A stretch of 64,000 nucleotides of DNA from Alphaproteobacteria bacterium (GCA_019746225.1 JAIESE010000013.1:106063-170062); one strand, 5' to 3'. Positions 6,750 to 52,650 are shown, numbered from the stretch's first letter. Made by a program: numbers and translations. Notes: generated from the letters alone by a model not told the origin.

Positions 6750-9700
6750 TTAATTCATCTTACTCCCAATATTATAAACAACATCCAACATTTTCCAAAG
6801 ATTTCCTAAAAATTTTCGATCAAAACCATCAAATGTTTGTCCATGATTCCTGTGGGTGCCGCACGTTCCGTTTCGTTTCGTAATCCGATTGACCGCGCTT
6901 ATATAAAACCCAGATTTTGTTTTGAAAATCTGTATCTGACTCATAAAAAAAGGATCCGAAAACAGTCTTTCAAGATCGCTGTGATCTACACTTTTGTCTT
7001 TGATTTTGTCGAGAATACGGAAAGATGTATCCGTAAGCTTAGATTCACCTTCCTCTTCTTGATTATGAAGATCGATCCCCTTGGCCAATCTAACAAGCTG
7101 AGCTCCTTTCTTGCGAATAACCGGTAAGGGCTCGGACAACTCCTCCTGGATTTCTACGTCTGAAAACGTATCCGTCTCCTCTTCAGCTACTTCTGACAAA
7201 ACATGAATGGGCTCTCTTTTCCCCATGATAGCGTAAATCGTTCTAATGGTTCGTGATGCAACCAGTTTTGGAGATTCAAGTTTTCCGGGCGTGGTTATTG
7301 CTTGATCTCTTAAAGCGTCAATTTCTGTATCCGTCATGTCATCAACGTGATCCCCTTTATCCCCATCCCCTCCCGATTCATGGAGTTTTCTCAAAGCGAG
7401 GTCTTCGAGGTCTCTTGTCACTGAAGGATCTGTCTGTCGCGCTATTTCAAACCAATGTTCTGCTTTAATGAGATCATCAAATTCAAACAGATATACTTTG
7501 CATAAGGCCATCATCGCTGGAGCATATCCTTTATGAGCTGCCATCGTGAAATGAGAAACGGCCTGGTGTATAGACTTCCGATCTTTGAGTCCCATCAAAG
7601 TAACGCCCGCATTATAACAACACGTTATATCACCAAGGGCGGCACCCTTTTTGAAATAACTTAAAGCCTTATTTACATCAGGCTCCTGGCCATTAAACCC
7701 CTTTAACCAAACAATTCCTGCCATTCCCATTGAACGGACATCCTTTTGAGCTGCTCCCTCTTCAAAATACTTTAAGGCGGATCTTGTAGCTGAAAATTGT
7801 AAAAGACTTACACCAGCGTGGTGCATCGACAGAGAATCACCAAGAGCCGCAGATCTTTTGTAACAGTCTAATGCAGCAGCTTCATCCGGTTCCTGACCTT
7901 CAAACCCTTTTGAGAGCATGCACCCCTTATTACAAATCGCTTTGACATGGCTTGCTTGCGCCGCATTGGTGAAAAGTCGGAAGGCTTCTTTTAAATCGGG
8001 AGATTGCCCCTCAAATCCATCCCTCAATAAACATGCCGCATTGTAAGTGGCTTCCAAATGTCCATACTCAGCAGCAATTCTAAGATATTTCAAAGCAGCT
8101 TTTAAGTCTCCTTTCACTTTGTGAGATCCAAGTAATAAATCACCTGCATGGTAATGGGCGTCTCTATACACCTCAGAACCTGCTTCTGCATGCGCGGCCG
8201 CTCGTTTGAAATAATCCAAAGCTTGATCATCATCCTCAACAAAACCAAATAGGAGCATGGCATAGTGAAGCATGGCCTGAAGATGTCCATGATCCGCTGC
8301 TTGCCGAAGATAATTTAAGGCTTTTGCCCAAAGTTTTTGAATGTTTGGTTCTTTTAATTTCCGTCTAAATTCCCCATCCTCAAAATCATTGCCACTGATG
8401 GTTTTGAAAATCATCAAACCGGTATCAAACATCGCTTCTACATGACCATTTTCGGCTGCTTGTTCAAAATAAACCAAAGCTGCTTTATGATCTGGCTTGC
8501 GTCGTTTAAATCCCTTTAAGAGATTAAGGCCAGCATGGTACATCCCCTCTCTACTTCCCCTAGACGCCGCTTTTTTGAAATACTCTAGAGCCCTATTCCC
8601 ATCAGGTTCTAGACCCTCACAGCCATTGCTACAAATCACAGCGACGTTCATTATGGAATCGACATCCCCTCCTGCAGCAGCCTGTTCGAATAACCCCAAG
8701 GCTCTTATCTTATTTACTGCTTGACCATAAGTACCTTTCACAAGTGCAAATCCTGCATTAAAAGCGGAATCCACATGACCTTGAGCGGCAGCCATGAGAA
8801 TATAATGGAAAGCTTCCTGTTCATTAGGCTCTCGGCCTTTAAACCCAGTTTTCAGAGCATGTGCGGCTTGAAGCATCGCAGGAACATTTTTGAGCCGTGC
8901 TGCTTTGATATAACATTGCAGCGCTTCTTCTTCATTGGGCTCTAATCCCCCATAACCAGAGATATAGATGGCCGCCGCATTCATATAAGCTTCAGCATCC
9001 CCCCGTTCTCCCGCCATTAAGTAGTATTTCAAAGCCATTGCAAAATTGGGCTCTTGACCTTTAAACCCGGTATGAAAGAGACACCCTACATTAAATAGAG
9101 ATCCGACATCTCCATGACGAACTGCCTCGAGGAGTAAATCCAACGCTTGTTTGTCATCTGGTTCATGACCGTCAAAGCACTTGCGCGCAACGGTTGCCCC
9201 ATTGACCATCGCTTTGACATGCCCAGCTCTAGCTGCCGCTAAAAAGTATTCGAGAGCTTTTGCGTAATTTGGCTTTTGATCATCATATCCTTCTAAATGG
9301 ATGCATCCCACATTAAACATGCCACCAGCATCTCCAAGGGCGGCTGCACGTTCAAATAAACGTAAGGCTGCCCTTTTATCCGGTGGATGGTCTTTATAAC
9401 CGTCTCGAATAATACACCCTGCATTAAAAATTGAATGGACATCCTGGAATGCTGCTGCTCTATTAAATTGCTGTAAGGCTGCATGACGGTCTTGCTCGAT
9501 GCCAATGCCGCCATCCATCAGGAGACAACCCGCATGGTACATTGCCGATATAATTCCAAGATCTGCAGCATCCAAATAATGCCTCAACCCTTCTGCAGGA
9601 TTGGGTGGCAGACCACTACCACCGTCGGTGAGTAAGGTTGCCAGTTTAGATAGGGCTATTGGATCACGTTGTAACGCGCCTGCTCTATAATAGAGAAGCG

Positions 9701-10670
9701 CCTGTTTTCCATCTGGCTCTTGTCCTTCAAATCCCTTAAGACAGAAATCCCCCATGCGGCACATGGAAAATACATCGCCCAGTTCGGCCCCTCTCCTTGC
9801 GAATTCTAATGTTTTGGGCACATGTTGGCCCTGAGCTGAAGATTCGAGCATACTCCATAAACAACGCGTGGCTTTAAAGTGACCGAGTCGTGCTGCATGC
9901 TCAAAGTAAACAAGAGCCATTGCATTGTTCTGGCCCCTCACATAAGTACAAGCAATCTCAAAGAGGTCGTCTTTGTCTCCTTGCAACGTTGCAATTTCTT
10001 TCTCCAGATCCTTGTAGAGACCGATGCCATTTTTTAGGAGAAAACCATTTAAGTCGCTTAAGGCAACGCTGTACTTCTTGCCCCGCCATTCCTCATAAAA
10101 CGCCTGAATCTGCTGTTTGGGGGTAGGGGGTAGTTTCACAAGAAAAAAGGGATAATTCCGTTTAGAATAACCGGCCGCAACATATTTTTTGGCAGGCTCA
10201 TATCCTCGACTCGCGGCTAAGTAATGCCAAGATGTAAAAGGATTTGTGTCGGTCTTTTCACGCTCTCCCCTTTCAAAATAAGCCCAGGGTAACTGGAGTT
10301 CAACTCCAAAATCTATGAGCTGAGCCAGAATGCCATTTCTATCCTGGTTCGCCGTAATATCAAGCTTTGAAAAGGGTTTGGTCAAGAATCCATAGAGTCT
10401 TCCAACCGATTCAGGAGCGCGGTTTTGAATGGCATCATATTGATAAGCACTTAAAAATAATTCAGAGGATATTTCATCATTAAAAAGAGCACTATTGATC
10501 ACCTTGTGATTCAACAACATCGGAGAGAATGGATATTTTCTTTCAAAAAACTTCTGAGCTTTTGTGAGAACGGAAGCATCAATAGGTGTGGATTCATTCT
10601 CAGCACCTAAAATGGATAAACCAAATAGTGTAAATAACATTACCGCAAGAGAAAAAGTACGTAGCATCAA
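6750..10670 (-). CDS. Giant Sel1-repeat (SLR/TPR-like) protein, EnhC-like, with a non-repeat C-terminal region
   Basis: Signal peptide. More than 20 consecutive ~36-aa units of the type A..YY..AA..G...A...LG.....G. The last ~280 aa are acidic and unique, without repeats. Confidence 0.9.
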   Translation of the reverse strand: MMLRTFSLAVMLFTLFGLSILGAENESTPIDASVLTKAQKFFERKYPFSPMLLNHKVINSALFNDEISSELFLSAYQYDAIQNRAPESVGRLYGFLTKPFSKLDITANQDRNGILAQLIDFGVELQLPWAYFERGEREKTDTNPFTSWHYLAASRGYEPAKKYVAAGYSKRNYPFFLVKLPPTPKQQIQAFYEEWRGKKYSVALSDLNGFLLKNGIGLYKDLEKEIATLQGDKDDLFEIACTYVRGQNNAMALVYFEHAARLGHFKATRCLWSMLESSAQGQHVPKTLEFARRGAELGDVFSMCRMGDFCLKGFEGQEPDGKQALLYYRAGALQRDPIALSKLATLLTDGGSGLPPNPAEGLRHYLDAADLGIISAMYHAGCLLMDGGIGIEQDRHAALQQFNRAAAFQDVHSIFNAGCIIRDGYKDHPPDKRAALRLFERAAALGDAGGMFNVGCIHLEGYDDQKPNYAKALEYFLAAARAGHVKAMVNGATVARKCFDGHEPDDKQALDLLLEAVRHGDVGSLFNVGCLFHTGFKGQEPNFAMALKYYLMAGERGDAEAYMNAAAIYISGYGGLEPNEEEALQCYIKAARLKNVPAMLQAAHALKTGFKGREPNEQEAFHYILMAAAQGHVDSAFNAGFALVKGTYGQAVNKIRALGLFEQAAAGGDVDSIMNVAVICSNGCEGLEPDGNRALEYFKKAASRGSREGMYHAGLNLLKGFKRRKPDHKAALVYFEQAAENGHVEAMFDTGLMIFKTISGNDFEDGEFRRKLKEPNIQKLWAKALNYLRQAADHGHLQAMLHYAMLLFGFVEDDDQALDYFKRAAAHAEAGSEVYRDAHYHAGDLLLGSHKVKGDLKAALKYLRIAAEYGHLEATYNAACLLRDGFEGQSPDLKEAFRLFTNAAQASHVKAICNKGCMLSKGFEGQEPDEAAALDCYKRSAALGDSLSMHHAGVSLLQFSATRSALKYFEEGAAQKDVRSMGMAGIVWLKGFNGQEPDVNKALSYFKKGAALGDITCCYNAGVTLMGLKDRKSIHQAVSHFTMAAHKGYAPAMMALCKVYLFEFDDLIKAEHWFEIARQTDPSVTRDLEDLALRKLHESGGDGDKGDHVDDMTDTEIDALRDQAITTPGKLESPKLVASRTIRTIYAIMGKREPIHVLSEVAEEETDTFSDVEIQEELSEPLPVIRKKGAQLVRLAKGIDLHNQEEEGESKLTDTSFRILDKIKDKSVDHSDLERLFSDPFFMSQIQIFKTKSGFYISAVNRITKRNGTCGTHRNHGQTFDGFDRKFLGNLWKMLDVVYNIGSKMN

Positions 10671-10724: not shown

Positions 10725-11546
10725 TTAAGCAACTTTGGGAACGTACCACTTATGCGTCTCGGTACGCGACAAAGCCTCCACGCCATGGGCGTCAATAAAC
10801 GTGACAACCGCCCACCGGGCATAGGGTTTGCCAATCTGTGACTTATCGACTTGAATGACATCATGCCATCCGGGTGAGAATTTATCCGTGGTCATCACTT
10901 TTTGATAATTGCTCGACAGCATAAAAATGGCCGTGCCGGATTGATGCTCCACGGGCGTCAGATTTTCAGGGCAACTGCCAATGCGAAGCCCGGGACAACT
11001 TTCCGCAATCGCAAGCGTAAACGAACCTGCATCAAAATGCGGTTTAGCCAGAAACTCACCCGAATTTTGCCACTTATACCTCAAAAACCGTAATTGAACA
11101 TGAACATCTTTTGTATCAAAAACTTTGTCACAGATTCCCGGAAAATCTGGCTCAAAAGTTTGAAGGATATCTTTTACTGTTTTGTATGCGGCCTCCCAAA
11201 TGGGTTTTGCTTTCATCATAAAATCCATGACAACCGGATGCTTTTCGAGAAAATCACCATACCTTTCGAACAATGCGGGATTAAAATGGAAAAATTCCTT
11301 ATCGTCATTATATATATGGTCACTCGCGTCACGATGCACATACCCCACATCTCCCCGACGATGGAGAGGGGAGATGGAAAACTGAATATGCTCCTTCACC
11401 GAATCGGGCTCTTCCAAAAATTTAAAAAAAGCCTCAACGGCGGATTCAATCGTTGGTCGTTCAATGGGAAAGGGCACTGTCGCATAAGATTTCTCTGCCA
11501 AGGACTTTTGAAGATTTTCGAAGGTGAGATCGTCATTCTTTTTCAT
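10725..11546 (-). CDS. Probable 2OG-Fe(II) oxygenase superfamily protein
   Basis: LRFLRY...KPHFDAGSFTL (HxD), GLRIG, a distal WHDV histidine and RWAVVTF resemble the isopenicillin-N-synthase-like layout. Confidence 0.55.
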   Translation of the reverse strand: MKKNDDLTFENLQKSLAEKSYATVPFPIERPTIESAVEAFFKFLEEPDSVKEHIQFSISPLHRRGDVGYVHRDASDHIYNDDKEFFHFNPALFERYGDFLEKHPVVMDFMMKAKPIWEAAYKTVKDILQTFEPDFPGICDKVFDTKDVHVQLRFLRYKWQNSGEFLAKPHFDAGSFTLAIAESCPGLRIGSCPENLTPVEHQSGTAIFMLSSNYQKVMTTDKFSPGWHDVIQVDKSQIGKPYARWAVVTFIDAHGVEALSRTETHKWYVPKVA

Positions 11547-11552
11547 TTGCGC

Positions 11553-11631
11553 TTTCCTTATTCATATCCAACACCTGATTTAATGAGATGCTTATTGCAT
11601 ATCATAGGACTACGGAAATATAAAGATGGCC
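11553..11631. repeat. Copy 1 of a ~79-bp direct repeat; this is the 5' UTR and upstream region of the oxygenase gene
   Basis: The core CCTGATTTAATGAGATGCTTATTGCATATCATAGGACTACGGAAATATAAAGATGGCC (11574-11631) recurs at 13430-13487 with one mismatch. Weaker homology extends from TTTCCTTATT. Confidence 0.9.
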
Positions 11632-11847
11632 AATAAACTCTATAATAGTCCATGTCAGTTTACCCATTTATAAGGATTTTGCAATAAGCATACCTCAAAG
11701 CCAATTGAGGTCATCACCACTCCGGGACTAAAATAGCACCCTACGCACTTCACGAATTTTCTTAGTGGGTGAGAGAACACCTCTTAGGGTATGGATGAAA
11801 TATTTTTTATTGCCAAAATCATGCTCTAAACTATACAAACAATGAAA

Positions 11848-11870
11848 CTAGCGTATTTTTACGGTATTGC
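11848..11870 (+). promoter_or_regulatory. Conserved box CTAGCGTATTTTTACGGTATTGC overlapping a putative -35 (site 1)
   Basis: Identical to 49918-49940 and near-identical to 45865-45887. TTGCAT is followed after 16 nt by TATTAT. It lies ~170 nt upstream of the 12042 ATG. Confidence 0.5.
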
Positions 11871-12041
11871 ATAATATAAATATCTTGTTATTATAAAAAA
11901 CTTCAAACGTTTTCAGTTGTTTTTGCTATTAGAAAAGCTCATTTAGCAAGCATGCTAAATATTATATATATTGATGCGCCACAATGCAAAACCAATTTAT
12001 AATTTAATTTTTATATTTAAAAAATAAGGCAAATATTTAAA

Positions 12042-13109
12042 ATGAAGTTTAAAAATTTAATAATTAACATAATTATACCATATATTTCTCTTTTTATTAT
12101 GATATTAATATCCCGTTTTATGATGGGCAATACGTCAATAGGGGTATTTATTGGATTTATTGGATGGTTAATCTTCTTGGCAGGGTATTGGTGGATCAGT
12201 TGTGTGTCAGCGACCTGGAGAAATGAGAAAGGACATTTTTTACATTATTGTACCAGAAAGGATGAATTAACATCGATCAAAATTTTTGAAAATGAGGACC
12301 CAAAGAAAGCAAAAATTATTGAAAGCAGCTATGCCCTCGTCGCCGCAATTAGAGTCAACAAGGAACAAACTCCGAAGCTAAAAGATAGCAAGTTTGGCGG
12401 CGTACCATATTGGCCTAAAGGCAAAGAATACCCAGTAACATCAGGGGGAAAAAGATTAGGCATGCTTGCCCAAATTAACTGCAAAGATGTGCCAAAAGAA
12501 TTAGGCTGGCCAAAGCGGGGGATTGTTCAGTTCTTCCTGAATGATGATGAGGATCATGATTCCTTTCATCCCTTAAATAAAAATCGCTCCCGCGTCATAT
12601 ACCATGAAGACACCAAGTTAGATTCAATAGAATTGAGCGTGGAGCAAGAGCCCATTTACTGGGGAAAAAACTACCCATTCAATTTTTCTCAACCCATGAA
12701 AATTGACTTCATGCTTGGTCATATGTTGCCCGTTCATCCTTCGGCAGATGTACTTTTAAACCCAATGCTAGCAGATCTTCTTGGGGCCACTGACTTTAGA
12801 TATGACACAAAAAATCCAGACCTTACATCCTCCTACTGGATCTATTGGGATCTCAAATGGCATGAATCATTTCCTAATTTCCCTAAACACTATATTGGGG
12901 GTTTTCCCGCAACAGACTATATTGCTGGGATGAGATTTGAGAATTACCCTCGTTATTCTAATCTTCTGCTTCAGATAAGTTCGGAGGGAAAAAAGGATGG
13001 GATCGGCTGGGTTGACGGAGGCCAGGGACAGTTTTTTACTTCTTCTCAAAAGCTAAAAGATAAAGATTTTACAGACGTCTGCTTTGCGGATTATTTTTCG
13101 CATTTCTAA
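12042..13109 (+). CDS. DUF1963 (YwqG-like) domain protein with two N-terminal TM helices
   Basis: KFGGVPYWPKGKEYP...MLAQINC...GIVQFF matches the blocks I recall for DUF1963. AT-rich gene preceded by a ~400-nt very AT-rich leader. Confidence 0.65.
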   Translation: MKFKNLIINIIIPYISLFIMILISRFMMGNTSIGVFIGFIGWLIFLAGYWWISCVSATWRNEKGHFLHYCTRKDELTSIKIFENEDPKKAKIIESSYALVAAIRVNKEQTPKLKDSKFGGVPYWPKGKEYPVTSGGKRLGMLAQINCKDVPKELGWPKRGIVQFFLNDDEDHDSFHPLNKNRSRVIYHEDTKLDSIELSVEQEPIYWGKNYPFNFSQPMKIDFMLGHMLPVHPSADVLLNPMLADLLGATDFRYDTKNPDLTSSYWIYWDLKWHESFPNFPKHYIGGFPATDYIAGMRFENYPRYSNLLLQISSEGKKDGIGWVDGGQGQFFTSSQKLKDKDFTDVCFADYFSHF

Positions 13110-13154
13110 TCAATCTTAAATCTTGATACTCATGATGAGCCCGGTACAAATTCA

Positions 13155-13405
13155 CCCGTACAAATTGAGTATTAACGCAATCCACGGCTTGGGTGAGCTG
13201 AATAGATTTGGGATCTTCCATGGGCAACATGGGCAACATGAAAAACAAATCAAGCTGAACTTGCTGATCCCGTGGCAACAGATCAAACACCATGACCCCT
13301 GCTTTATGGTACGCAAAGCCGAGCTTAAATATACTCTCAAATGCTTTCGTTGTGGCTTTAATCAGACTCAAATCATCATCAACGGGACAAGGCAAAATAA
13401 GGGTT
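13155..13405 (-). pseudogene. Internal fragment of umuC (duplicate of 13942-14184)
   Basis: The translation PCPVDDDLSLIKATTKAFESIFKLGFAYHKAGVM...DPKSIQLTQAVD.VNTQF is near-identical to UmuC residues in the full copy. There is a 9-nt internal duplication (MLPMLPM). It lacks the 5' ~900 nt and the last ~115 nt of the gene. Confidence 0.9.
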
Positions 13406-13408
13406 ACA

Positions 13409-13487
13409 TTTCCTTATTTAAATTCACTGCCTGATTTAATGAGATGCTTATTGCATATCATAGGACCACGGAAATATAAAGATGGCC
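13409..13487. repeat. Copy 2 of the ~79-bp direct repeat, fused to the umuC fragment
   Basis: See 11553-11631. It starts 3 nt after the point where umuC homology ends. Confidence 0.9.
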
Positions 13488-13826
13488 TTAAAGCATTAAA
13501 AAGTTTGTATACCACCAGTATCATTTTAAGTCAGATCTGACGAGGTCCTGTTTCCTCACAATCTTTAAGAGTTTTTTCGACAAACTTGAGTTTTTCTTAT
13601 ATTACTCCGACAACAAAACAGATGATGCTTGAACCTTCCCTCGGGGGAAGGGAAGAGTATGACTGAATAAATGCTATAATTCAACATGTTACGTCATTGC
13701 ATGACCAGAATACATGGTAATTCACCGTGCTGCTCCGGTTTTCTGAGAAAAGTACGGATCACTAAGGACTCTTGAGGTATTGAATAAAGTAGCTGCAACA
13801 ATCTCAGAATCCTTACCTTCCCCCCC

Positions 13827-15095
13827 CTACCGCGCATACGCCTTGGGGAGATCCTGCCAGCAGGTGGTGTAAGCGGGTGAGACATTGCGTTTCTGGTCCC
13901 GCCATCGCAAGCGCTTTCCGCAGGCGGCCGAAAAAAGTGTCCCCCGTCCAAATTGAGTATTCACACGATCCACGGCTTGGGTGAGTTGAATAGATTTTGG
14001 GTCTTCCATGGGCAGCATGGAGAAAAGATCAAGCTGAATTTGCTGATCCCGGGGCAATAGATCAAGCGCCATGACCCCTGCTTTATGGTACGCAAAACCG
14101 GGCTTGAAGATGCTCTCAAACGCCTTCGTTGTGGCTTTAATCAGGCTCAAATCATCATCAACGGGACAGGGCAAAATAAGGGTTGCGTGATTTCGATATT
14201 GGGGCTGATTTTTGCGAAAAAAATTCGTGCGAATCTCCACCAAAACACTGCGCGTCTTTAAGCCATTGATGCGCAACTTTTGGGCCAATCGGGTGGCATA
14301 GGTCGCAACCGCCGCTCGAACATCTTCTTCCTTGACCATGGGCACGGCAAAGCTACGGGATACTTGGATTGATTTTTTAGGATCCTGAATGTCCTCGACC
14401 TCAAGGCAAGACAGCCCATTCAGTTCATGAATGAGACGCTCCCCCACAACCGTAAAGGTGCGCCGCATCCAACGAGGATCGATTTCCTTCAACTGCAGCC
14501 CTGTATAAATACCATAAGCCTGCAGGCGCTCCGTGATGCGACGTCCAATGCCCCAAATGTCCTCAATCTTGATGGCCTTTAGCGCCCCATTCACACGCGC
14601 GTCCGTATCCAAAACACACACGGACCGATACGCCCCCACCCGCTTAGCAAAGTAGTTAGCCACCTTCGCCAAGGTCTTTGTCTTAGCAATGCCGATGGAC
14701 GTGGGAAGTCCCAAAGATTGATAGATCTGATTCCTCAAATGATGCGCCCTTTCCTCTATGCTCACCACACCTGAAAAGTCGATAAATGCTTCATCAATGG
14801 AATAGACTTCGAGGCGCGGAACATGAGATTCAATCAGCGTCATCATGCGCGCGGACATATCCCCATAAAGGGAAAAGTTTGACGAAAAAACGGCAACGTG
14901 ATTTTTAAGGAGAATATCTTTGATTTTGAAATATGGCGCGCCCATGGGGATACCGAGTGCCTTGACCTCTGCGGATCGGGCAATGATGCAGCCATCGTTA
15001 TTCGACAGAACCGCAACGGGACGCCCCACAAGATCGGGGCGAAAGACCCGCTCGCACGAAGCAAAAAAATTATTGCCATCGAGAAGACCAATCAT
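13827..15095 (-). CDS. umuC: Y-family DNA polymerase V catalytic subunit UmuC
   Basis: MIGLLDGNNFFASCERVFRPDL...SIDEAF motifs and a C-terminal SPAYTTCWQDLP. Overlaps the upstream umuD-like gene by 4 nt. Confidence 0.9.
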   Translation of the reverse strand: MIGLLDGNNFFASCERVFRPDLVGRPVAVLSNNDGCIIARSAEVKALGIPMGAPYFKIKDILLKNHVAVFSSNFSLYGDMSARMMTLIESHVPRLEVYSIDEAFIDFSGVVSIEERAHHLRNQIYQSLGLPTSIGIAKTKTLAKVANYFAKRVGAYRSVCVLDTDARVNGALKAIKIEDIWGIGRRITERLQAYGIYTGLQLKEIDPRWMRRTFTVVGERLIHELNGLSCLEVEDIQDPKKSIQVSRSFAVPMVKEEDVRAAVATYATRLAQKLRINGLKTRSVLVEIRTNFFRKNQPQYRNHATLILPCPVDDDLSLIKATTKAFESIFKPGFAYHKAGVMALDLLPRDQQIQLDLFSMLPMEDPKSIQLTQAVDRVNTQFGRGTLFSAACGKRLRWRDQKRNVSPAYTTCWQDLPKAYAR

Positions 15096-15712
15096 GATGA
15101 CCCCTTAAATTCATGAATCACGGATGTGACGACGCCCCAAATCTGAAACGCCATTTCTTCTGTGATGACAAGGGGCGGGTAATTTGGATTTTCAGGCAGG
15201 AGGGTTATAATTTCCCCCTTCATATGAAGACGCTTTACGGTAAGCTCCCCATTGACAACTGCAATCACAATGGCACCGCTTTTCGCTTCCACGGAACGAT
15301 CCACCACCAAAATATCATTGTTGTGAATACCGGCCTGAATCATGGAATCGCCAGATGTTCTGACAAAAAAAGTAGCGGCAGGATGCTGAATCAAGTGCTG
15401 GTTTAAATCCAAAGCCATTTCTAAAAAATCATCAGCGGGCGACGGAAATCCGGCCGACACCCGGCTCGCGTAAAAGGGAAGATTGAGATTGCTTGGCTTT
15501 GAGATACGAATGTCTTGCAAAGTGGCAGAATCAAGGGTAAAAGATGGCTCTGCCTTTCCCTCTTTCCAGGTGCGAATAATGTGATCAAGACTGGGGACAA
15601 GAGAGGCCGGAATACGCTTCGCAACCGTCTTTTCCCCATACACACCGGAGTTCGCCTTGCGCCCCGCTCCGGGTCGTGCTCCCCCTCTTGAATCCTTGTT
15701 AGACATCTTCAT
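15092..15712 (-). CDS. umuD: UmuD-like S24 peptidase with an ~85-aa basic N-terminal extension
   Basis: AG/FPSPADD cleavage-site region, the GDSM serine and the VKRL lysine. The N-terminal GGARPGAGRK...KRIPASLVPSLDHII part is not found in canonical UmuD. Confidence 0.8.
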   Translation of the reverse strand: MKMSNKDSRGGARPGAGRKANSGVYGEKTVAKRIPASLVPSLDHIIRTWKEGKAEPSFTLDSATLQDIRISKPSNLNLPFYASRVSAGFPSPADDFLEMALDLNQHLIQHPAATFFVRTSGDSMIQAGIHNNDILVVDRSVEAKSGAIVIAVVNGELTVKRLHMKGEIITLLPENPNYPPLVITEEMAFQIWGVVTSVIHEFKGSS

Positions 15713-16007
15713 AAATCCTGCTTGATTGAAACTTGTACAACAATCATAACAACAAAAATTTGAAGATGTCTAATAAAACAATTTGAGGAAAATTTTCCCT
15801 CCTTAAATTTAAGGGACACGCTCCTCGAGCTCCAGAGGGAGAGGCCAGGAAATAGCGAAAATCTCATAAATCGAAACACTTGGCGCATTTCATCTTGTCA
15901 TCTTCCCCCACCTCGTGGCATAAAGAGAAAACATTTGGATATGACTTTAGTAGCCAATGCTGGAAAACATCCTAAAAATTACCCAATAATAGTGGAGTTT
16001 TGCAATC

Positions 16008-45864: not shown

Positions 45865-45887
45865 CTAGCGTATTTATACCGTATTGC
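45865..45887 (+). promoter_or_regulatory. Conserved box CTAGCGTATTTATACCGTATTGC overlapping a putative -35 (site 3)
   Basis: 20 of 23 nt match sites 1 and 2. TTGCTG is followed after 16 nt by TATATA. It lies ~55 nt upstream of the ATG at 45941. Confidence 0.45.
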
Positions 45888-45940
45888 TGTTATTAAAAAC
45901 GCGAATATATACTAAATCTCAATTTTTAGGAGATGCCACC

Positions 45941-46771
45941 ATGAAACTTCAATCGTTGCTATTCGCTTTTGCCGCAAATACCCTCATGCCTTATCCGCTA
46001 ATGGCGAGTGATAGCAGAGTTCCAGATCTACCAATAGAAATGGATGTTCCCAAGTGTGCAGGAGTCGCTTCCCAAGGGGAAGTATTGAATCTGGAGGAGA
46101 AAAAGACTCTATTATTGAGCGCGTGTGGGGTTGAAAAAGACCGTCAAGCACTTATCAACGCCTTTAATGAACCTTCTTCTGAGGATGCATTAAGGCAAGT
46201 ATTAGCCTGGATGACGGAAGATAGGCTTAAAAGGAGCACAAAGACTTCAAATTGGTCTTCGTTTATGCTTGGTGTTCTCAAAATATTGGAAGAGTTTGAA
46301 GATGATAAACGACATGCCTTTGTTTTACGGCTAGAACAAAACGGCGTTATGACTAGGTGTAGTAATATTTTTGATATCCATCATTATCTCCAGATCTTTA
46401 GGAATTCTACTACTGAGAAAATGAATCAAGCTATGAGATGGGTTAAAGAAACGGGAATTTGGGAGGTTTGCAAAAGCGGTGAATTCCATTTACCTAACTT
46501 GGTGGAATTAGTAAAAGACTATGACCAGGAGCAACTCGGTTGTGTAACATCATTTCTCAAAACAACAGGGATTTTGAGCCAATATTGCCATCAAAATAAT
46601 CTGTATGAACCCAGAAGGCGTCTCGCAGAGATGCTTAATCTTCTTAAAACGTGCCGCACAGAACAACTAGAGTTTCTTGCGCAATGGATGAAAGCAACGA
46701 CTTACATCTATAAGCACTTGGATGAGGGAAACGGGCGCTTGGGAGAAACTCAGCTCCTGGTACTGCTTTAG
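45941..46771 (+). CDS. Secreted repeat protein, N-terminal part (probably split from 46722..48410 by a frameshift)
   Basis: AGGAG RBS and the ATG at 45941 give the signal peptide MKLQSLLFAFAANTL; the track TTG at 45884 lies inside the box. Recurrent W(M/V)(K/R)E(T/S)G-type modules. Confidence 0.55.
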   Translation: MKLQSLLFAFAANTLMPYPLMASDSRVPDLPIEMDVPKCAGVASQGEVLNLEEKKTLLLSACGVEKDRQALINAFNEPSSEDALRQVLAWMTEDRLKRSTKTSNWSSFMLGVLKILEEFEDDKRHAFVLRLEQNGVMTRCSNIFDIHHYLQIFRNSTTEKMNQAMRWVKETGIWEVCKSGEFHLPNLVELVKDYDQEQLGCVTSFLKTTGILSQYCHQNNLYEPRRRLAEMLNLLKTCRTEQLEFLAQWMKATTYIYKHLDEGNGRLGETQLLVLL

Positions 46772-48410
46772 TAATTTTATTCTTTTAGGTAAGAGGTATG
46801 ATGAATCATTATTTATCAAAGCCTTATCTGAAAATTATGTCACTAGTGCTGGCCTTACTCAGGAAATCTTTTTTGACTTTTTTATGAGACATTTTCCGGA
46901 TGGTGACTCGGTAGATTCTTTGCGCAAATTAAAAGCTGCTGCTACCTGGATTAATGAATCATATTCAGAAAAATTTTACTCTAGTGAGGTAAAAGAGCTA
47001 TTTTCTATTCTCAAAAAATACGATTTTGAATATTTAAAGCTAATTACATCCGTCCTAATGGAAATGCGTTGGTTGGATACAATGCAGCCTTGTAATTTAA
47101 CACTCGCATTAAGAAGATTAAAAAACTGTAACAAGGAAACCTTCACAACAATTATTTCATGGATGAAAGAATCTGGGGTTTTGGCAACCTGCAATGATGT
47201 GGAAAGTTTTCTTAACGTAATCAGTTCCATCCAAACATGTGGGCCAGAGGACCTCAGAAATCTTATAGAACAAGGGGTTGTTCCAGAAAACGTTATTGAA
47301 GTTTTGATCCGCGTGTTGGGTGAAACCCATCCCGTCACCCAAAATCTCATAGAATTAGCCATTGGGTATGACAATCAACGAAACCCCAATAGCCCATTTG
47401 CAGTTTACTGTGAAATGAGGAAAAAGAGTAGTGATGAGGTTGAACACCGCCAACTTCAATTAACGACAGGTCTATCTTTGCGGTTAAATAGTATCAAGGA
47501 ACCTCGACCAGCAATCAGTATTCATATGCCTTCCAATGTTTGGAAAAGACTTTTTGAACAGTTTGAGAAAATAGATCCATCTACTTACACTGAACTTTTG
47601 GGTGATATTTCCCTAGAAACTATCTTGAAACTTAAAAATCACCACGACATTGTAAGGCTTCTGGACCCCAAAGATAGTCTAAAAGTTAATAAAAAGATCT
47701 CTTCGCACAGTCATATGTTGAGAGAAGTTCTTAAAAAAGCGCAAGAGGATTTTAGACTAGACCACGAGAATATTGGCAGTTTTGTACAGCTCTTGGTCAA
47801 CATCACAACGTGTCAAACAGGAAAGCTCAACGGGATTACTCACAGTTATATCTATATGAACCAGGGTCGCGCGCTCGATGAAAGTGTATTGGGGGCAGAA
47901 GGGTTTAAGCAAGAAATTGTCAGTTTCTTTAAGGAAGAATTACGACGCTTTAGAGAAGCAACCTTAGCGGCAATTGTGAGGAATATTACGAGGAGGCCAC
48001 AGGCTGATCCTCATGATCTTTACTATGTACGTGGCATTATTGGTCATGAGACTGGCCTCTTTTTTGAGAATGAGACCCCAACGGTTGACATTTATGCTTG
48101 GGGTGTCTCTGGGAAATTGAGGGGAAAAACCAAACAACAATTGTTGGATTTGTTCTATCAATATTACAAGGTGGAAGATGTGGTGGATCGCGTTCACTCG
48201 ATGTTAAACAATGGCTCAATTAGTATCTCAAATGAGTACTTAAGGGATGAGGCTATGGACGAAACATTGAGTGCGTGGGATCCTGAACTCGTGGTGCTGG
48301 ATGGTCAACAAAAGCCTTTGGGTCTTACCCCAAAAGCAGCACAGCGCCTTCTGGAAATTCTCGGTTTTGTCGTGAACGAAAATAAACCAGAGGAAACCAT
48401 GAAAACTTAA
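46722..48410 (+). CDS. Repeat protein, C-terminal part with a unique ~330-aa C-terminal domain
   Basis: The same module (TWMRETGAWEKL, SWMKESGVLATC) continues here. This frame is open from 46692 and overlaps the upstream ORF by 80 nt. Confidence 0.55.
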   Translation: MRETGAWEKLSSWYCFSNFILLGKRYDESLFIKALSENYVTSAGLTQEIFFDFFMRHFPDGDSVDSLRKLKAAATWINESYSEKFYSSEVKELFSILKKYDFEYLKLITSVLMEMRWLDTMQPCNLTLALRRLKNCNKETFTTIISWMKESGVLATCNDVESFLNVISSIQTCGPEDLRNLIEQGVVPENVIEVLIRVLGETHPVTQNLIELAIGYDNQRNPNSPFAVYCEMRKKSSDEVEHRQLQLTTGLSLRLNSIKEPRPAISIHMPSNVWKRLFEQFEKIDPSTYTELLGDISLETILKLKNHHDIVRLLDPKDSLKVNKKISSHSHMLREVLKKAQEDFRLDHENIGSFVQLLVNITTCQTGKLNGITHSYIYMNQGRALDESVLGAEGFKQEIVSFFKEELRRFREATLAAIVRNITRRPQADPHDLYYVRGIIGHETGLFFENETPTVDIYAWGVSGKLRGKTKQQLLDLFYQYYKVEDVVDRVHSMLNNGSISISNEYLRDEAMDETLSAWDPELVVLDGQQKPLGLTPKAAQRLLEILGFVVNENKPEETMKT

Positions 48411-48623: not shown

Positions 48624-49654
48624 TAGAATTCGCCTCCTTTGATGAATTGAGATTTGAGAACGGCATGGGATAAAGGCTCCTGATCATGGTCTTTGAACCA
48701 GGCTTTAAGGGCGGCTAAATCGGGGTGTTCCAAACAGCTATGAAGCATTTTCCACATGCGGGGGAGATGATTGAGGTAATGGGTTTTGCCGTCCCGCACC
48801 GCAAGGCGGGTAAAGATGCCGATGTTTTTGGCATGGCGTCCAGCGGCCAATAGGCACCCTGATGATCTCAAAGCTTCTTCATCCAAATGAGGAAAGGCCC
48901 CTAAATATCGTTGCCAGCAATGCTCGATGAGCGCAGGCTCTAAATCGAGGCGTTCATCCTCCACAAGGGAGATAAGATCATAAGCAACGGGTCCCCATCC
49001 CGCATCTTGAAAATCCAGAAGTCCACAGGCGGCAACATCAGCGCGATCTTTCAAGAGCATCAAATTATCCACATGATAGTCCCGCAATGCTAAGGTATGG
49101 GGACTCTTAACTGCTTTTTCAAAAACAGGTCTCCAGAGATCGAGATAGTCTACTTTCTCGGAATTGGACAAGCTCTTATTGCAATTCGCAGGCACATACC
49201 AGTCAACAAATTGGGTGACTTCTCGCAGCATATGATCAACATCATAAGCGGGGATAAATTCTGGGCAATCCGTTGCCCGCTGATGAAGAGCGATGAGGGT
49301 ATCGACCGCCAACTCATAGAGGGGATAGGGATCATGGCCTGCTTGCAACAGTTTTGTATAAGTCGTCTCACCAAAATCCTCTATGGCCAGTAACCCTTGG
49401 GACAAATCTTCGGCGAGGATGGCAGGCGCTGAAAATCCAAGATCCTTCAAATGGGATGCCACGCGCACAAATTGGGTGGGATTTTCAGGAGGTGGTGCAT
49501 CCATCAAGAGTCCCCCCTCATAGCGGAAATATTGTCGCTTCGAGGCATCACAAGGCAACGCCGTCAGGGATTGATGGCCTAAAAAGAGATGCCGTTGCGC
49601 TACCCGGTCGAGGGGATCAACTTGTGGTTTCTGGTAAGGTTTTAAGCGACTCAT
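48623..49654 (-). CDS. Aminoglycoside-phosphotransferase-fold kinase (AmgK-like)
   Basis: LRDYHVDNLMLL (catalytic loop) and LLDFQDAG. The position after tsaE is common in alphaproteobacteria. Confidence 0.72.
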   Translation of the reverse strand: MSRLKPYQKPQVDPLDRVAQRHLFLGHQSLTALPCDASKRQYFRYEGGLLMDAPPPENPTQFVRVASHLKDLGFSAPAILAEDLSQGLLAIEDFGETTYTKLLQAGHDPYPLYELAVDTLIALHQRATDCPEFIPAYDVDHMLREVTQFVDWYVPANCNKSLSNSEKVDYLDLWRPVFEKAVKSPHTLALRDYHVDNLMLLKDRADVAACGLLDFQDAGWGPVAYDLISLVEDERLDLEPALIEHCWQRYLGAFPHLDEEALRSSGCLLAAGRHAKNIGIFTRLAVRDGKTHYLNHLPRMWKMLHSCLEHPDLAALKAWFKDHDQEPLSHAVLKSQFIKGGEF

Positions 49655-49825
49655 GGGGTCCTACTAAGGTTATGGTAATTTCTCGCGTTGTTTCATTGAC
49701 GATTTTTAATGTGATATCAATTCGTCGGCGGGGCAATAAATCAGCCAACCGCTCCGGCCATTCTATCAAGCATATGGCCTCATGAAAAGCATCTTCAAGG
49801 CCTAACTCAAAGTTTCCTGAGGGTA
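49608..49825 (-). pseudogene. Duplicated 3' end of tsaE (copy of 51475-51692)
   Basis: The core 49613-49803 differs from 51480-51670 at about 6 positions by eye. The translation FELGLEDAFHEAICLIEWPERLADLLPRRRIDIT.KIVNETTREITIT.VGPHESLKTLPETTS equals the TsaE C-terminus. Confidence 0.92.
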
Positions 49826-49917
49826 AAGAAAAATTTGAAGATCTGTAAGATAGAGACCTTTTTAGCAAATTAAACTGATATTCCTGAAATAACTCACCCT
49901 CTTTGAAACTTTAGGAA

Positions 49918-49940
49918 CTAGCGTATTTTTACGGTATTGC
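49918..49940 (+). promoter_or_regulatory. Conserved box CTAGCGTATTTTTACGGTATTGC overlapping a putative -35 (site 2)
   Basis: Identical to site 1, with 26 nt identical when flanks are included. TTGCAA is followed after 18 nt by TACAAT. It lies ~80 nt upstream of the 50019 ATG. Confidence 0.5.
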
Positions 49941-50018
49941 AAAAATATATTTTGTGTCTCTACAATAATGCTCATTTTTTAATAAGTACTTTATGTTTAT
50001 TAAAATTTATTATTTAGC

Positions 50019-51434
50019 ATGGAGAAAAAAATACATAAATATTTAAAACAAACAACTTTTGCTTTATTAGTGACAGGACTCTGTTCTCAAATAGGGTTTA
50101 CATCTGAAGAGGGTAAGGAAAGTAAGAAAAGAAAGTCTTCTCATTCTTCTATCGCTCATACTGAACGCTTACAGGGAGATCAAACTTCAGCAGTAATATC
50201 TCCTATGCTTAAGTCCCAGAAGACTGAGGATGAACCTCAAATAGATCTTCGTAATCTTGGTAAGCTTTTTGAGTTGCCTTATCACGTTCGTATGCAACTC
50301 TACGGACTTTTGGATAGCACAACTCTTAAGTTCTTAAATATTCAAAACAGAGCATTACGATGTGAGATCTTTCAACAAAGAGGAGGTAGAATAGACTTAA
50401 AAATAAACACTCCTGTAGAAGCTTTAAGGGGGATGCTTAGGAAAGTCGGAAAAATAGACCTAGTGGCTAACTGTCTGAGATATTTGAATGTTCAAGGCTT
50501 GAGTGTTCTTGCAAAGCAAGATGGAACAGTTGATAAAACTCAATTCTTGGATGACGAAATCGTGGACCTCCTTGCCAGGTGCAAAAATTTGAAATCTTTC
50601 GCATTGTCTAGCTGTATAATCTGTCCCGGTGGTAAGAATTGGACTGAAGAAAGTACGGAAAATTGGGGAAATAACCAAAACCCTTTAAGACCTGTGGCTA
50701 GAAACGCCCTTACTCGCCTTTGCGAGGTTATATCAACAGAAACTTTATGCGAAGAGTTGATTTACGATTCAACTCCTTATTCTGAAAATTGGGAGTGGGA
50801 CCACGAAGATTGCCATGTTAATGGTCCTTTCGATTCCGATTCTGCCCTAAAAATTGTGCGTAAATCTTTTAATTTTTCAAAATTGAAAAAATTAAAAATT
50901 GGTTTAAATTTTGATACCACCTCCCTTTCTAAAATAGTTAAAGAAAAAATAGAATATATGACTTCATTGGAATATTTAAATTTACATTTTTGTGGGGATT
51001 TTCAAGAACTATTTATTGAGCTCCTGGGAAAAGTCAAAAATAATAGCAAACTAAAAGTATTTAAATTAGAATCTGAAGAATACTCATACGGCTTTAATCT
51101 TAGAATGCTCACTGAAATTTTTAATTCTGATCTATATATACAAAGAATATATCTTCATAATTTATGGTTTGACTGTGATCATCAAAATATTTTTAGGGAA
51201 TTATGCCAAGCTGTAAACCAATCTAGAAGTTTAGTTAAACTGAAATTTTTAGCACTTAAATTGCCTTATGGACAAGGTTTTTATAATGGGCTCAACCTCT
51301 TATTCAGGATAAAAGTTTTTTGCCATAATTGTCGTGAACCAATAGAAAACAAATGTTTTGATCCGAAGAATTTTACAAGGAAAAGCTTAATAATTGAGAC
51401 TTTTTGCGAAGAGTGCAAGGCAAACGGTGAGTAA
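50019..51434 (+). CDS. Eukaryote-like F-box-like / leucine-rich-repeat protein with a signal peptide
   Basis: LFELPYHVRMQLYGLLDSTTLKFLNIQNRALRCEI fits the F-box spacing (LPxx...L..L......L). It is followed by RNI-type LRRs (LKSFALSSC, LKKLKIGLNF, LEYLNLHFCG, LKVFKLES, LVKLKFLALKL). C-terminal CxxC...CxxC. About one-third GC by eye. Confidence 0.6.
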   Translation: MEKKIHKYLKQTTFALLVTGLCSQIGFTSEEGKESKKRKSSHSSIAHTERLQGDQTSAVISPMLKSQKTEDEPQIDLRNLGKLFELPYHVRMQLYGLLDSTTLKFLNIQNRALRCEIFQQRGGRIDLKINTPVEALRGMLRKVGKIDLVANCLRYLNVQGLSVLAKQDGTVDKTQFLDDEIVDLLARCKNLKSFALSSCIICPGGKNWTEESTENWGNNQNPLRPVARNALTRLCEVISTETLCEELIYDSTPYSENWEWDHEDCHVNGPFDSDSALKIVRKSFNFSKLKKLKIGLNFDTTSLSKIVKEKIEYMTSLEYLNLHFCGDFQELFIELLGKVKNNSKLKVFKLESEEYSYGFNLRMLTEIFNSDLYIQRIYLHNLWFDCDHQNIFRELCQAVNQSRSLVKLKFLALKLPYGQGFYNGLNLLFRIKVFCHNCREPIENKCFDPKNFTRKSLIIETFCEECKANGE

Positions 51435-51484
51435 TGGGTCCAGTTTTTAAATTCGTCGTCTGGCCATCCCTTCAGTTGAGGAGA

Positions 51485-51946
51485 TCAACTTGTGGTTTCT
51501 GGTAAGGTTTTAAGCGACTCATGGGGTCCTACTATGGTTATGGTAATTTCTCGTGTTGTTTCATTGACGATTTTAAAAGTGATATCAATCCGTCGGCGGG
51601 GTAATAAATCAGCCAACCGCTCCGGCCATTCTATCAAGCATATGGCCTCATGAAAAGCATCTTCAAGGCCCAGTTCAAACACTTCCTCGGGGTCTTTGAG
51701 ACGATAAAGATCGCAATGCCACACTTCGCCTTGAGGGGTATCATAAGCTTGTACAAGCGTGAAAGTCGGACTGGGGACATCTATGTCTTGACCAACCATA
51801 GTTTGAATGAGAATGCGCGCAAATGTCGTTTTCCCGACGCCCAAATCCCCCCACAAGGCAATCACGTCTCCTGGCCGCAAAGCTTCTGCCAGAGGCTGCA
51901 CCAAGCTACTGAGGTCTTGTTGAGTGAGGGTGTAGGTGAATGTCAT
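51485..51946 (-). CDS. tsaE: tRNA t6A biosynthesis ATPase TsaE
   Basis: WGDLGVGKTTFAR (P-loop), SPTFTLV and HCDLYRL. Confidence 0.9.
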   Translation of the reverse strand: MTFTYTLTQQDLSSLVQPLAEALRPGDVIALWGDLGVGKTTFARILIQTMVGQDIDVPSPTFTLVQAYDTPQGEVWHCDLYRLKDPEEVFELGLEDAFHEAICLIEWPERLADLLPRRRIDITFKIVNETTREITITIVGPHESLKTLPETTS

Positions 51947-51961
51947 ATATCTTACAACTTA

Positions 51962-52285
51962 CTATGCTGCAACAACATGTGTTACTGCGGGACGAAATTT
52001 TGAATGGTTTCTTTTGATGACAATATCAACATCCCAATCGAGTAAATTGAGGAGATGGATTAAGCGATCAATAGAAAACTTGTGAAGACGTCCTCTAAAC
52101 AAATCAGAAACATCAGGTTGCTTTAGACCCAAGACACGGGCTGCCTGCGTCTGAGTCAGTTTTCTCGAAATGATGGTTTTTTGGATCTTTCGAGCCAATT
52201 CAGCCTTAGCCAGAACTTCCTCAGGCTCTTTAATCTTTAGGTCAGCAAATATATTATCGCTCGCCTTAATAATTTTTTCCGTCAT
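51962..52285 (-). CDS. XRE-family HTH antitoxin (HigA-like)
   Basis: LTQTQAARVLGLKQPDVSDLFRGRLHKFSIDRLI HTH. 4-nt overlap with the upstream toxin gene. Confidence 0.8.
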   Translation of the reverse strand: MTEKIIKASDNIFADLKIKEPEEVLAKAELARKIQKTIISRKLTQTQAARVLGLKQPDVSDLFRGRLHKFSIDRLIHLLNLLDWDVDIVIKRNHSKFRPAVTHVVAA

Positions 52286-52650
52286 TTCTTTCTCCTTTCA
52301 TAATCTTCTTGAGCTCTTTTAAACCGCGCCTCAATCAGATCAATTTCTTTCTTTGGTGTTGCAATTCCATGCTTAGACTTTTTTTGAAAGGCATGGAGAA
52401 CATATATAGCTTCTTTAAGTGTGACTGTATAAACAACTCTAAAGGTATTAGTGTTATGATCTTCAACAATCTCTAAAACTCCTGATCCCTTAAATCCTTT
52501 TAGAGGTTTTACTGAAGAATGTTTTTCTCCCATTTGTGCTAGGTAGAGAGCATAACCAGCTTCTTCTCGAACCTCCTCAGGAAAGTCTAGTAGATCAATT
52601 TTTGTGCTACCAACCCAATACAATGGTTTTATCACACCTAACTCCCTCAA
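52282..52650 (-). CDS. RelE/HigB-superfamily toxin (Gp49/DUF891-like)
   Basis: LKGFKGSGVLEIVEDHNTNTFRVVYTV...IYVLHAFQKKS matches the Gp49-like HigB family. Toxin-first gene order. Confidence 0.8.
   Translation of the reverse strand: MRELGVIKPLYWVGSTKIDLLDFPEEVREEAGYALYLAQMGEKHSSVKPLKGFKGSGVLEIVEDHNTNTFRVVYTVTLKEAIYVLHAFQKKSKHGIATPKKEIDLIEARFKRAQEDYERRKK

Follow-up and report, generated by a model that had tools for sequence, protein, structure and literature searches.

Small accessory genes in endosymbiont-like bacteria sit between conserved genes without visible mobile-element machinery, and the route by which they entered is usually a matter of guesswork. One such gene raises the question here. 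In a stretch of 64,000 nucleotides (nt) from an uncultured alphaproteobacterium (Alphaproteobacteria bacterium, GCA_019746225.1, JAIESE010000013.1:106063-170062; an NCBI metagenome-assembled genome, or MAG, with K2Y18 locus tags and a contig of 185 kb), referred to below as the window and numbered from its first letter, a gene of the DUF1963 family lies between an oxygenase gene and umuC, accompanied by duplicated pieces of sequence from both neighbors. How did it get there, and where do the duplicates come from? We give a probability of about 50% to the reading that the locus is a Campbell-type integration, by a single crossover, of a recircularized 1.86-kb fragment from a related lineage. 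We hold with good confidence that the duplicates were imported as homeologous sequences and are not local copies. The organism's UmuC protein finds its best matches in Paracaedibacter and Odyssella-type amoeba symbionts, at 50 to 59% identity.

On the plus strand, the locus reads oxygenase gene, repeat A, cassette 1, umuC fragment, repeat A', spacer S, umuC, and umuD. The oxygenase gene (10725-11546, minus strand, 273 amino acids [aa]) encodes an isopenicillin-N-synthase-like 2OG-Fe(II) protein, as judged from the open reading frame (ORF) and homolog annotation; its match to Pfam 2OG-FeII_Oxy is weak (E = 8e-4, below the cut-off), and several of its 394 homologs are annotated as isopenicillin N synthase-like dioxygenases. 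Repeat A (11553-11631) spans positions -85 to -7 of the oxygenase start and includes the ribosome-binding site (RBS) AAGGA. Cassette 1 (11632-13151, plus strand, 1520 nt), bounded by the end of the A' homology and by the umuC homology, consists of an AT-rich leader, a putative promoter box, the DUF1963 gene (12042-13109, plus strand, 355 aa), and a terminator-like hairpin; its GC content is 36%, compared to 44% for the window. The internal umuC fragment (13152-13405/7, minus strand) corresponds approximately to UmuC residues 305-385, lacking the first 304 and the last 37 codons, and is followed by 1 to 3 nt of filler (13406-13408) and repeat A' (13409-13487). Spacer S (13488-13826) extends over 339 nt to the stop codon of the intact umuC (13827-15095, minus strand, 422 aa, with IMS, IMS_C, and DUF4113 domains), which forms an operon with umuD (15092-15712, minus strand, Peptidase_S24).

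By in-window BLAST, the only long repeats in the 64 kb are A/A', the umuC fragment with umuC, and a second pair, T/T', described below. A and A' are identical at 72/79 positions (E = 1e-23). The umuC fragment (13152-13405) aligns with positions 13940-14184 of the intact gene at 87% identity over 254 columns (E = 8e-75) and contains one in-frame 9-nt tandem duplication, two copies of ATGGGCAAC at 13220-13237. Another local tandem duplication, CCCGGTACAAATT (13140-13152) and CCCGTACAAATT (13155-13166), can be read from the sequence at the junction of the cassette with the fragment (13140-13166). Spacer S has no ORF, no coding signal, and no similarity to the fetched relatives or to the rest of the window; we take it to be the original intergenic DNA between the oxygenase gene and umuC. 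A preliminary description of the window, made from the sequence alone, had reported the flanking duplication of A, a umuC fragment with a 9-nt internal duplication and 3 nt short of A', and some 340 nt of unrelated sequence before the intact umuC. This arrangement was recovered in full, with every coordinate correct to within 3 nt. An Rfam scan of positions 11000-14500 returned no match, so A is not a known riboswitch or small RNA.

The gap between the umuC fragment and A' is 3 nt when the fragment is delimited by BLAST, and 1 nt when GTA (GCA in umuC) is counted as part of the fragment. The joint (13407/13409) lacks useful microhomology and links sequences that the resident arrangement has in the reverse order and at a distance of 776 nt; position 13408 is an illegitimate joint, which we propose to be the one at which a circle closed. 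The junction is covered by contigs from at least 12 JGI/Logan samples, which match the window at 99.9 to 100%, and no k-mer-sized overlap that could mislead a graph assembler is present at the joint. Because the samples reproduce the joint and such an overlap is missing, the junction is not an assembly artifact. An allelic indel was considered as the origin of the 3 nt, with a donor umuC one codon shorter, and was rejected: the YRNxxT motif is complete in 12/12 relatives.

Between the umuC fragment and the resident gene there are 27 differences in 234 sites, spread over the whole length of the fragment, and 17/27 of them fall at codon position 3 (binomial p = 0.0015). By the NG86 method, the synonymous divergence (dS) is 0.46 and the non-synonymous divergence (dN) 0.051, a dN/dS ratio (omega) of 0.11; in the two wrong frames, the omega of the fragment is 0.84 and 1.79. 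As a null, an in-situ duplication was simulated in which the fragment drifted neutrally and the resident umuC stayed under selection. The probability of at most nine non-synonymous differences was then 0.002 to 0.04 for kappa values of 1 to 6, where the neutral kappa measured in non-coding DNA is 2.2. Because the divergence is mostly synonymous, the fragment is best seen as a piece of a working allele rather than a decayed local copy. Replacements on the fragment branch at positions conserved in the family are P333L and G384V, plus a 3-aa insertion. The fragment appears to have been non-functional for a short time, hence the few replacements at conserved positions, and most of the divergence would have accrued within a working umuC.

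Two other sources for the fragment were rejected. A paralogous umuC in the same genome is unlikely, since none of the umuC matches in the protein search, which drew on a deeply sampled population, exceeded 80% identity to the resident gene. Templated copying during repair, of the kind known as microhomology-mediated break-induced replication, would yield copies that are identical at birth. As a separate observation on umuC, three synonymous third-position single-nucleotide polymorphisms within 34 nt (14952, 14958, and 14985) set the window apart from all 13 JGI/Logan contigs spanning the sites (~10 samples); the remaining ~20 kb is identical. The cluster looks like a short import from a diverged allele and indicates, being both clustered and synonymous, that recombination does occur between diverged alleles of umuC in this population.

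The closest relative available is a wastewater contig (L018, from SRR628916) with 91% DNA identity, which ends inside the DUF1963 gene. It carries the oxygenase gene, A, the same junction of A with the cassette, the leader, and part of the DUF1963 gene. Between the window and L018, the dS of the oxygenase gene is 0.446, equal to that between the umuC fragment and the resident umuC, whereas the dS of the adjacent DUF1963 gene is 0.107 and the leader is 90% identical. On these sequence distances, the cassette coalesces with its L018 counterpart approximately four times more recently than the flanking oxygenase gene does. With a dS some four times below that of the oxygenase gene, cassette 1 was probably exchanged between the lineages long after they split.

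The two copies of A contain a further trace of exchange. Six of their mismatches lie in the left 21 nt (11553-11573) and one, at 13467 in A', in the right 58 nt (11574-11631), the core, an uneven distribution (Fisher p = 0.001). When A, A', and L018 are compared site by site, A' equals L018 and A differs at five sites (11565-11573), and A equals A' and L018 differs at eight sites (11576-11628). The patterns segregate perfectly, with a sharp switch at 11574/5 (p ~0.002), and both cores differ from L018 at 9/58 sites. The three sequences thus form what the site patterns identify as a mosaic, with a recombination breakpoint at 11574/5. It follows from the segregation that A' is of the L018 type at its left end, where the umuC fragment adjoins, and that A is not of that type at its own left end, on the side of the oxygenase gene. 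As an observation in its own right, a 12-nt inverted repeat, ATGCTTATTGCA (11589-11600) and TGCAATAAGCAT (11682-11693), spans the junction of A with the cassette; its TATTGCA motif recurs in A' and in the putative promoter box of the cassette and may be an operator or -35 element common to these places.

Elsewhere in the window, another cassette shows this anatomy again. Cassette 2 (49803-51474, plus strand, 1672 nt, 33% GC) consists of an AT-rich leader and a gene for a 471-aa protein (50019-51434, plus strand) with a signal-peptide-like N terminus and no Pfam match. It lies between two copies of a 196-nt segment, T (49607-49802) and T' (51475-51670), in which the 3' end of tsaE overlaps the start of an APH-like kinase gene. 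T holds the first 16 codons of the kinase gene and its upstream sequence, overlapping a non-functional copy of the last 62 tsaE codons; T' holds the 3' end of the intact tsaE (51485-51946, minus strand) and a non-functional copy of the kinase start. Owing to the duplication, both genes are intact. The tsaE remnant forms an 83-aa ORF (49617-49868) that is annotated as TsaE in the MAG. T and T' are 96% identical (188/196), and of their six differences inside tsaE, five affect codon position 3; identity is complete over the last 68 nt, which adjoin the cassette leader, as in the core of A. When the tsaE fragment was added to the umuC fragment in the simulated null, the joint P was 0.003 at kappa 2-3. 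The two repeat units are nearly equal in length, 1856 nt (11553 to 13409) and 1868 nt (49607 to 51475), although the genes and flanks are unrelated; A and T are likewise unrelated and share no att core. One contig (L049, sample 3300056799) has a 22-nt deletion at window positions 50451-50472 that splits the cassette 2 gene into ORFs of 316 and 146 aa, which may be a loss-of-function variant segregating in the population.

The two cassettes share a 26-nt box, AACTAGCGTATTTTTACGGTATTGCA, at 11846-11871 (plus strand) and 49916-49941. These are its only exact matches in the window, one per cassette, where 0 would be expected. The box is 100% conserved in L018 (1167-1195), within the 90%-identical leader, and contains the palindrome CGTA-N4-TACG. 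It lies ~215 nt inside cassette 1 and ~115 nt inside cassette 2 and overlaps a -35-like hexamer: in cassette 1 it ends in TTGCAT, with a -10-like ATTATA 17 nt later, and in cassette 2 the corresponding elements are TTGCAA and, after 18 nt, TACAAT. From these features the box is predicted to be an operator plus promoter. It was not found in the corresponding loci of more distant relatives, and a scan with its 20-nt core of a genome collection that does not include this organism gave four chance matches only (Flavobacteriales, Burkholderiaceae, and Saprospiraceae).

From these data we infer a circular intermediate, a donor, and an order of events. The recipient chromosome would have carried the oxygenase gene, A, S, and umuC. 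In a related donor lineage, illegitimate recombination would have put the cassette in place of S and the last 113 nt of umuC. A donor piece of 1.86 kb (the cassette with 79 nt of A and 254 nt of umuC) would then have closed into a non-replicating circle, creating the novel joint of the umuC fragment with A at 13407/13409. Recombination of the circle with the recipient inside A, by a crossover or heteroduplex extending from ~11574 to the end of the homology at 11631, would yield the order oxygenase gene, A, cassette, donor umuC fragment, A', S, and intact umuC, with heteroduplex correction over the 58-nt core. The recipient would gain the cassette, the oxygenase gene would keep its RBS, and umuC would stay whole. 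The resulting merodiploid holds both "alleles" of the interval, S with the end of umuC and the cassette. Recombination of A with A' would bring back the cassette-free state, and through the 58-nt identical tract the same circle should occasionally be excised; if the two umuC segments crossed over instead, the cassette would be left abutting a truncated umuC.

The preliminary description had already suggested that a circle of A, cassette, and umuC piece integrated through A, and the suggestion is favored on four counts. Purifying selection was acting while the fragment and the resident umuC diverged. The left end of A' is L018-type and that of A is not, as expected if this part of A' is donor DNA continuous with a donor umuC fragment, and the opposite of what a linear fragment with one-sided homology predicts. 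The cassette has a younger history than the flanking oxygenase gene. Finally, the second cassette repeats the combination of insertion and duplication. At both loci, direct repeats of one chromosomal segment flank the insert, and the cassette 1 unit contains a single novel joint, matching circle closure. A one-step origin gains support from the second locus, since a single crossover automatically places an insertion exactly between the repeat copies, an outcome that would otherwise be improbable.

Several points weigh against single-crossover integration of a circle. The circle itself was not recovered, and neither was an empty site (oxygenase gene, A, S, umuC) in any relative or contig examined, nor a donor-type allele with the cassette abutting a truncated umuC and no duplication; the L018 contig is too short to reach either. 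The ancestral arrangement presumed earlier, with the oxygenase gene next to umuC and no cassette, was thus found in none of them. Exact-protein look-ups with UmuC and TsaE returned the same strain only, with no empty site among the matches, and the clusters of the DUF1963 protein and of the 83-aa and chimeric 108-aa (see below) ORFs had members from the same organism only. All of the more than 40 contigs with exact oxygenase, DUF1963, UmuC, or TsaE proteins carry the insertion. Because the sampling is clonal for structure, the missing empty site is a weak negative. In more distant relatives, the oxygenase gene is not next to umuC, and other genes lie between umuC and the oxygenase block; since gene order differs there, we derive the cassette-free arrangement from the window itself. 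The dN/dS test uses 27 differences only and weakens to p ~0.04 at high transition bias, and the tsaE fragment alone, with six differences, is not significant in the neutral-decay simulation (P ~0.2). A truncated umuC in the donor fits poorly with recent selection on the fragment, unless the truncation was recent. Lastly, the copies of A switch sharply at 11574/5, but their cores are not reciprocal: they are identical, and this calls for conversion. Identical cores do not come from a simple crossover by itself; heteroduplex correction or a donor core matching the recipient is needed.

Among the alternatives, homology-facilitated illegitimate recombination of a linear fragment, with one homologous end and an illegitimate join at 13407/13409, survives best, and we regard it as possible though unlikely. 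Either a cassette-bearing donor piece entered a naive recipient, or a relative's wild-type A'-S-umuC repaired a umuC that the cassette had truncated. The joint is of the right kind, blunt and illegitimate with 1 nt of filler, the allelic divergence of the umuC fragment at low dN/dS fits any inter-lineage import, and the process is documented in naturally transformable bacteria and in Escherichia coli (PMC3240628). However, a linear fragment anchored in A or the oxygenase gene, with its illegitimate end where the recipient's A starts, predicts identical, recipient-type left ends, and 6/21 positions differ there, with A' resembling L018. The repair variant makes the oxygenase gene and the cassette both resident, yet their dS relative to L018 differs four-fold. 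In the E. coli experiments, moreover, this route was ~14 times rarer than recircularization followed by a single crossover, and it typically deletes rather than duplicates (PMC3240628).

The preliminary description also allowed for a tandem duplication followed by a deletion. In the form considered here, a 776-bp segment of A, S, and the 3' part of umuC would have been duplicated in situ, the cassette would then have replaced S and the 3' end of umuC in the left copy, and the divergence would stem from short allelic imports that later reached the resident umuC and A at its left end. We consider this improbable. It does produce the observed joint (14184 to 13409), the near-identity of the A and A' cores (1/58) is as expected for a recent local duplication, and short imports of diverged alleles occur in umuC, as the three clustered polymorphisms illustrate. 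It nevertheless requires at least three extra independent events, and the fragment differences, mostly synonymous, span the whole length of the fragment. A non-functional copy should decay neutrally, in contrast to an omega of 0.11 and the low probabilities obtained in the simulations (0.002 to 0.04, and 0.003 jointly). L018 shares the junction of A with the cassette at 10% cassette divergence, from which ~6 core differences would be expected, and one is seen. At the second locus, cassette 2 would have had to insert at the exact junction of a 196-bp tandem duplication.

Selection acting on the fragment after a local duplication would also lower dN/dS, if the chimeric 108-aa ORF (13069-13395, minus strand) were an expressed neo-gene. 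The ORF, "hypothetical" in the MAG, exists as the preliminary description had it, with 81 umuC-derived codons followed by cassette-derived sequence; its frame is open for all 108 codons, the 9-nt duplication is in frame, and a copy of the oxygenase RBS lies ahead of it. Its expression, which had been put forward as well, is doubtful: in A', ATG-TAA comes 1 nt after the RBS, a distance of 15 nt separates the RBS from the TTG start of the ORF, and A' was found to contain no promoter-like site. Furthermore, G384V, P333L, and the 3-aa insertion strike family-conserved positions, and the tsaE fragment, which bears the same signature, would also have to be functional. A neo-gene is therefore very unlikely, and the umuC fragment and A' are probably passengers.

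It is more improbable still that a site-specific mobile element (an integrase-borne islet, integron cassette, transposon, or miniature inverted-repeat transposable element) brought in the cassettes, with A/A' and T/T' as att sites or target-site duplications. Both cassettes are flanked by direct repeats, and the box and the near-equal unit length are common to both. Yet no recombinase or transposase is encoded within ~10 kb of either cassette (Pfam on all called genes), terminal inverted repeats and similarity between the cassette ends are lacking, and the best inverted match is no better than in shuffled sequence. The flanking repeats are unrelated host sequences of 79 and 196 nt, and the box, being internal and overlapping a -35-like hexamer, resembles a promoter or operator rather than a recombination site. 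For an integron cassette in particular, neither intI nor an attC-like inverted repeat at the 3' ends is present, and each cassette has its own upstream promoter-like box. A chimeric assembly of two co-occurring strains has a negligible probability: the sequences are of metagenomic origin, and several contigs end within A, A', or the AT-rich leader, but the identical joint was recovered in at least 12 samples by two assembly pipelines (JGI and Logan) as well as in the NCBI MAG, with no overlap of k-mer length.

The gene that cassette 1 carries belongs to the DUF1963/YwqG family (TYPP domain; PMC4275035). Its product matches Pfam PF09234 over profile positions 1-212 of 216 (E = 1e-35) and the YwqG structure 1PV5 in the PDB (E = 1e-16), and it has two hydrophobic helices at the N terminus. 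Its one close relative is that of L018 (90% aa identity), followed by a next-best match at 42%; a metagenome scan with the protein gave two distant matches (30 to 35% identity), and that scan also missed the window's own contigs.

Further features lie in the surroundings of the two cassettes. Downstream of the oxygenase gene, the window has a 1306-aa Sel1-repeat gene (6750-10670) that is absent in L018 (2322-2476), where a PLD-like gene begins within 8 nt of the oxygenase stop codon; the Sel1-repeat gene is another lineage-specific insertion and has no flanking repeat. Between yacG and an MFS transporter gene (45884-48410), the window has two unannotatable genes (295 and 562 aa), and a 73%-identical relative (L019, 12057-12694) has a toxin-antitoxin pair, which makes the interval one more variable islet flanked by conserved genes. 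Directly upstream of tsaE lies a HigB/HigA-like pair (Gp49 toxin and HTH_37 antitoxin, 51962-52650). At the start of umuD and upstream of it (15696-15776), there is a 16-nt inverted repeat, complementary at 15/16 positions, with its arms 49 nt apart.

What the locus offers is a legible scar: the duplicated flanks keep their allelic, mostly synonymous differences and a recombination breakpoint. If read as we propose, it records how a single-gene cassette with its own putative promoter passed between related lineages by ordinary homologous recombination, leaving umuC, tsaE, and their neighbors intact. Finding two scars in 64 kb suggests a route in common use in this organism. In that case, flanking repeats would be a searchable signature of integrase-free gene gain, and reversible loss would be predicted through the identical tracts of 58 to 68 nt. 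More speculatively, the two cassettes could be integrase-free "promoter-box" units of ~1.86 kb that circulate among related amoeba-symbiont-like alphaproteobacteria by repeat-mediated pop-out and single-crossover reintegration, gaining a piece of a flanking gene in each round. We consider such circulation doubtful; if true, the umuC fragment would be the fossil of an earlier insertion site, and the near-equal unit size would point to a size-determined step, such as fragment or packaging size.

The locus is a natural instance of a textbook recombination outcome and not a new kind of element. Its nearest counterpart is experimental. When linear DNA with one-sided homology was introduced into E. 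coli, it was mostly trimmed, religated, and integrated by a single crossover, which accounted for 56/60 clones with duplications of 109 to 950 bp, as against 4/60 for homology-facilitated illegitimate recombination (PMC3240628). The duplications here, 79 and 196 bp, compare with that range, and the anatomy is that of Campbell-type integration: an insert between direct repeats of a homologous segment, one internal novel joint, and flanking genes left intact. Unlike in the experiments, the event is natural and fixed in an uncultured alphaproteobacterium, the donor homology is homeologous (~10% diverged), which makes the copies distinguishable, and the circle, which we infer from sequence, would have carried a second host fragment (umuC) as a passenger. 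Homology-facilitated illegitimate recombination is known from natural transformation of Acinetobacter and Streptococcus pneumoniae and in E. coli conjugation (PMC3240628 and works cited there). It likewise places foreign DNA beside a homology with an illegitimate joint at the other end, but it usually deletes recipient DNA, whereas here there is a duplication, and the mosaic of A and A' does not fit it.

Some integrative elements, such as phage 21 and e14 at icd in E. coli, bring along a substitute for one end of the gene they target and produce a direct repeat of displaced and replacement gene ends with mainly synonymous differences, each copy having evolved in a functional gene. Such elements encode an integrase and use a defined att core. 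In contrast, no recombinase is present here, and a duplicated 5' leader, an internal umuC piece, and a gene overlap are inconsistent with a single att site. Merodiploids of S. pneumoniae reportedly form by bridging pre-existing repeats on sister chromosomes, duplicating large regions; here, the repeats would be created by the event itself, and the unit is 1.86 kb. Partial duplications in transformed S. pneumoniae arise from recombination with exogenous DNA (PMC3784515). What makes the present case worth pursuing is the paired example, with its shared putative promoter box and matching unit size.

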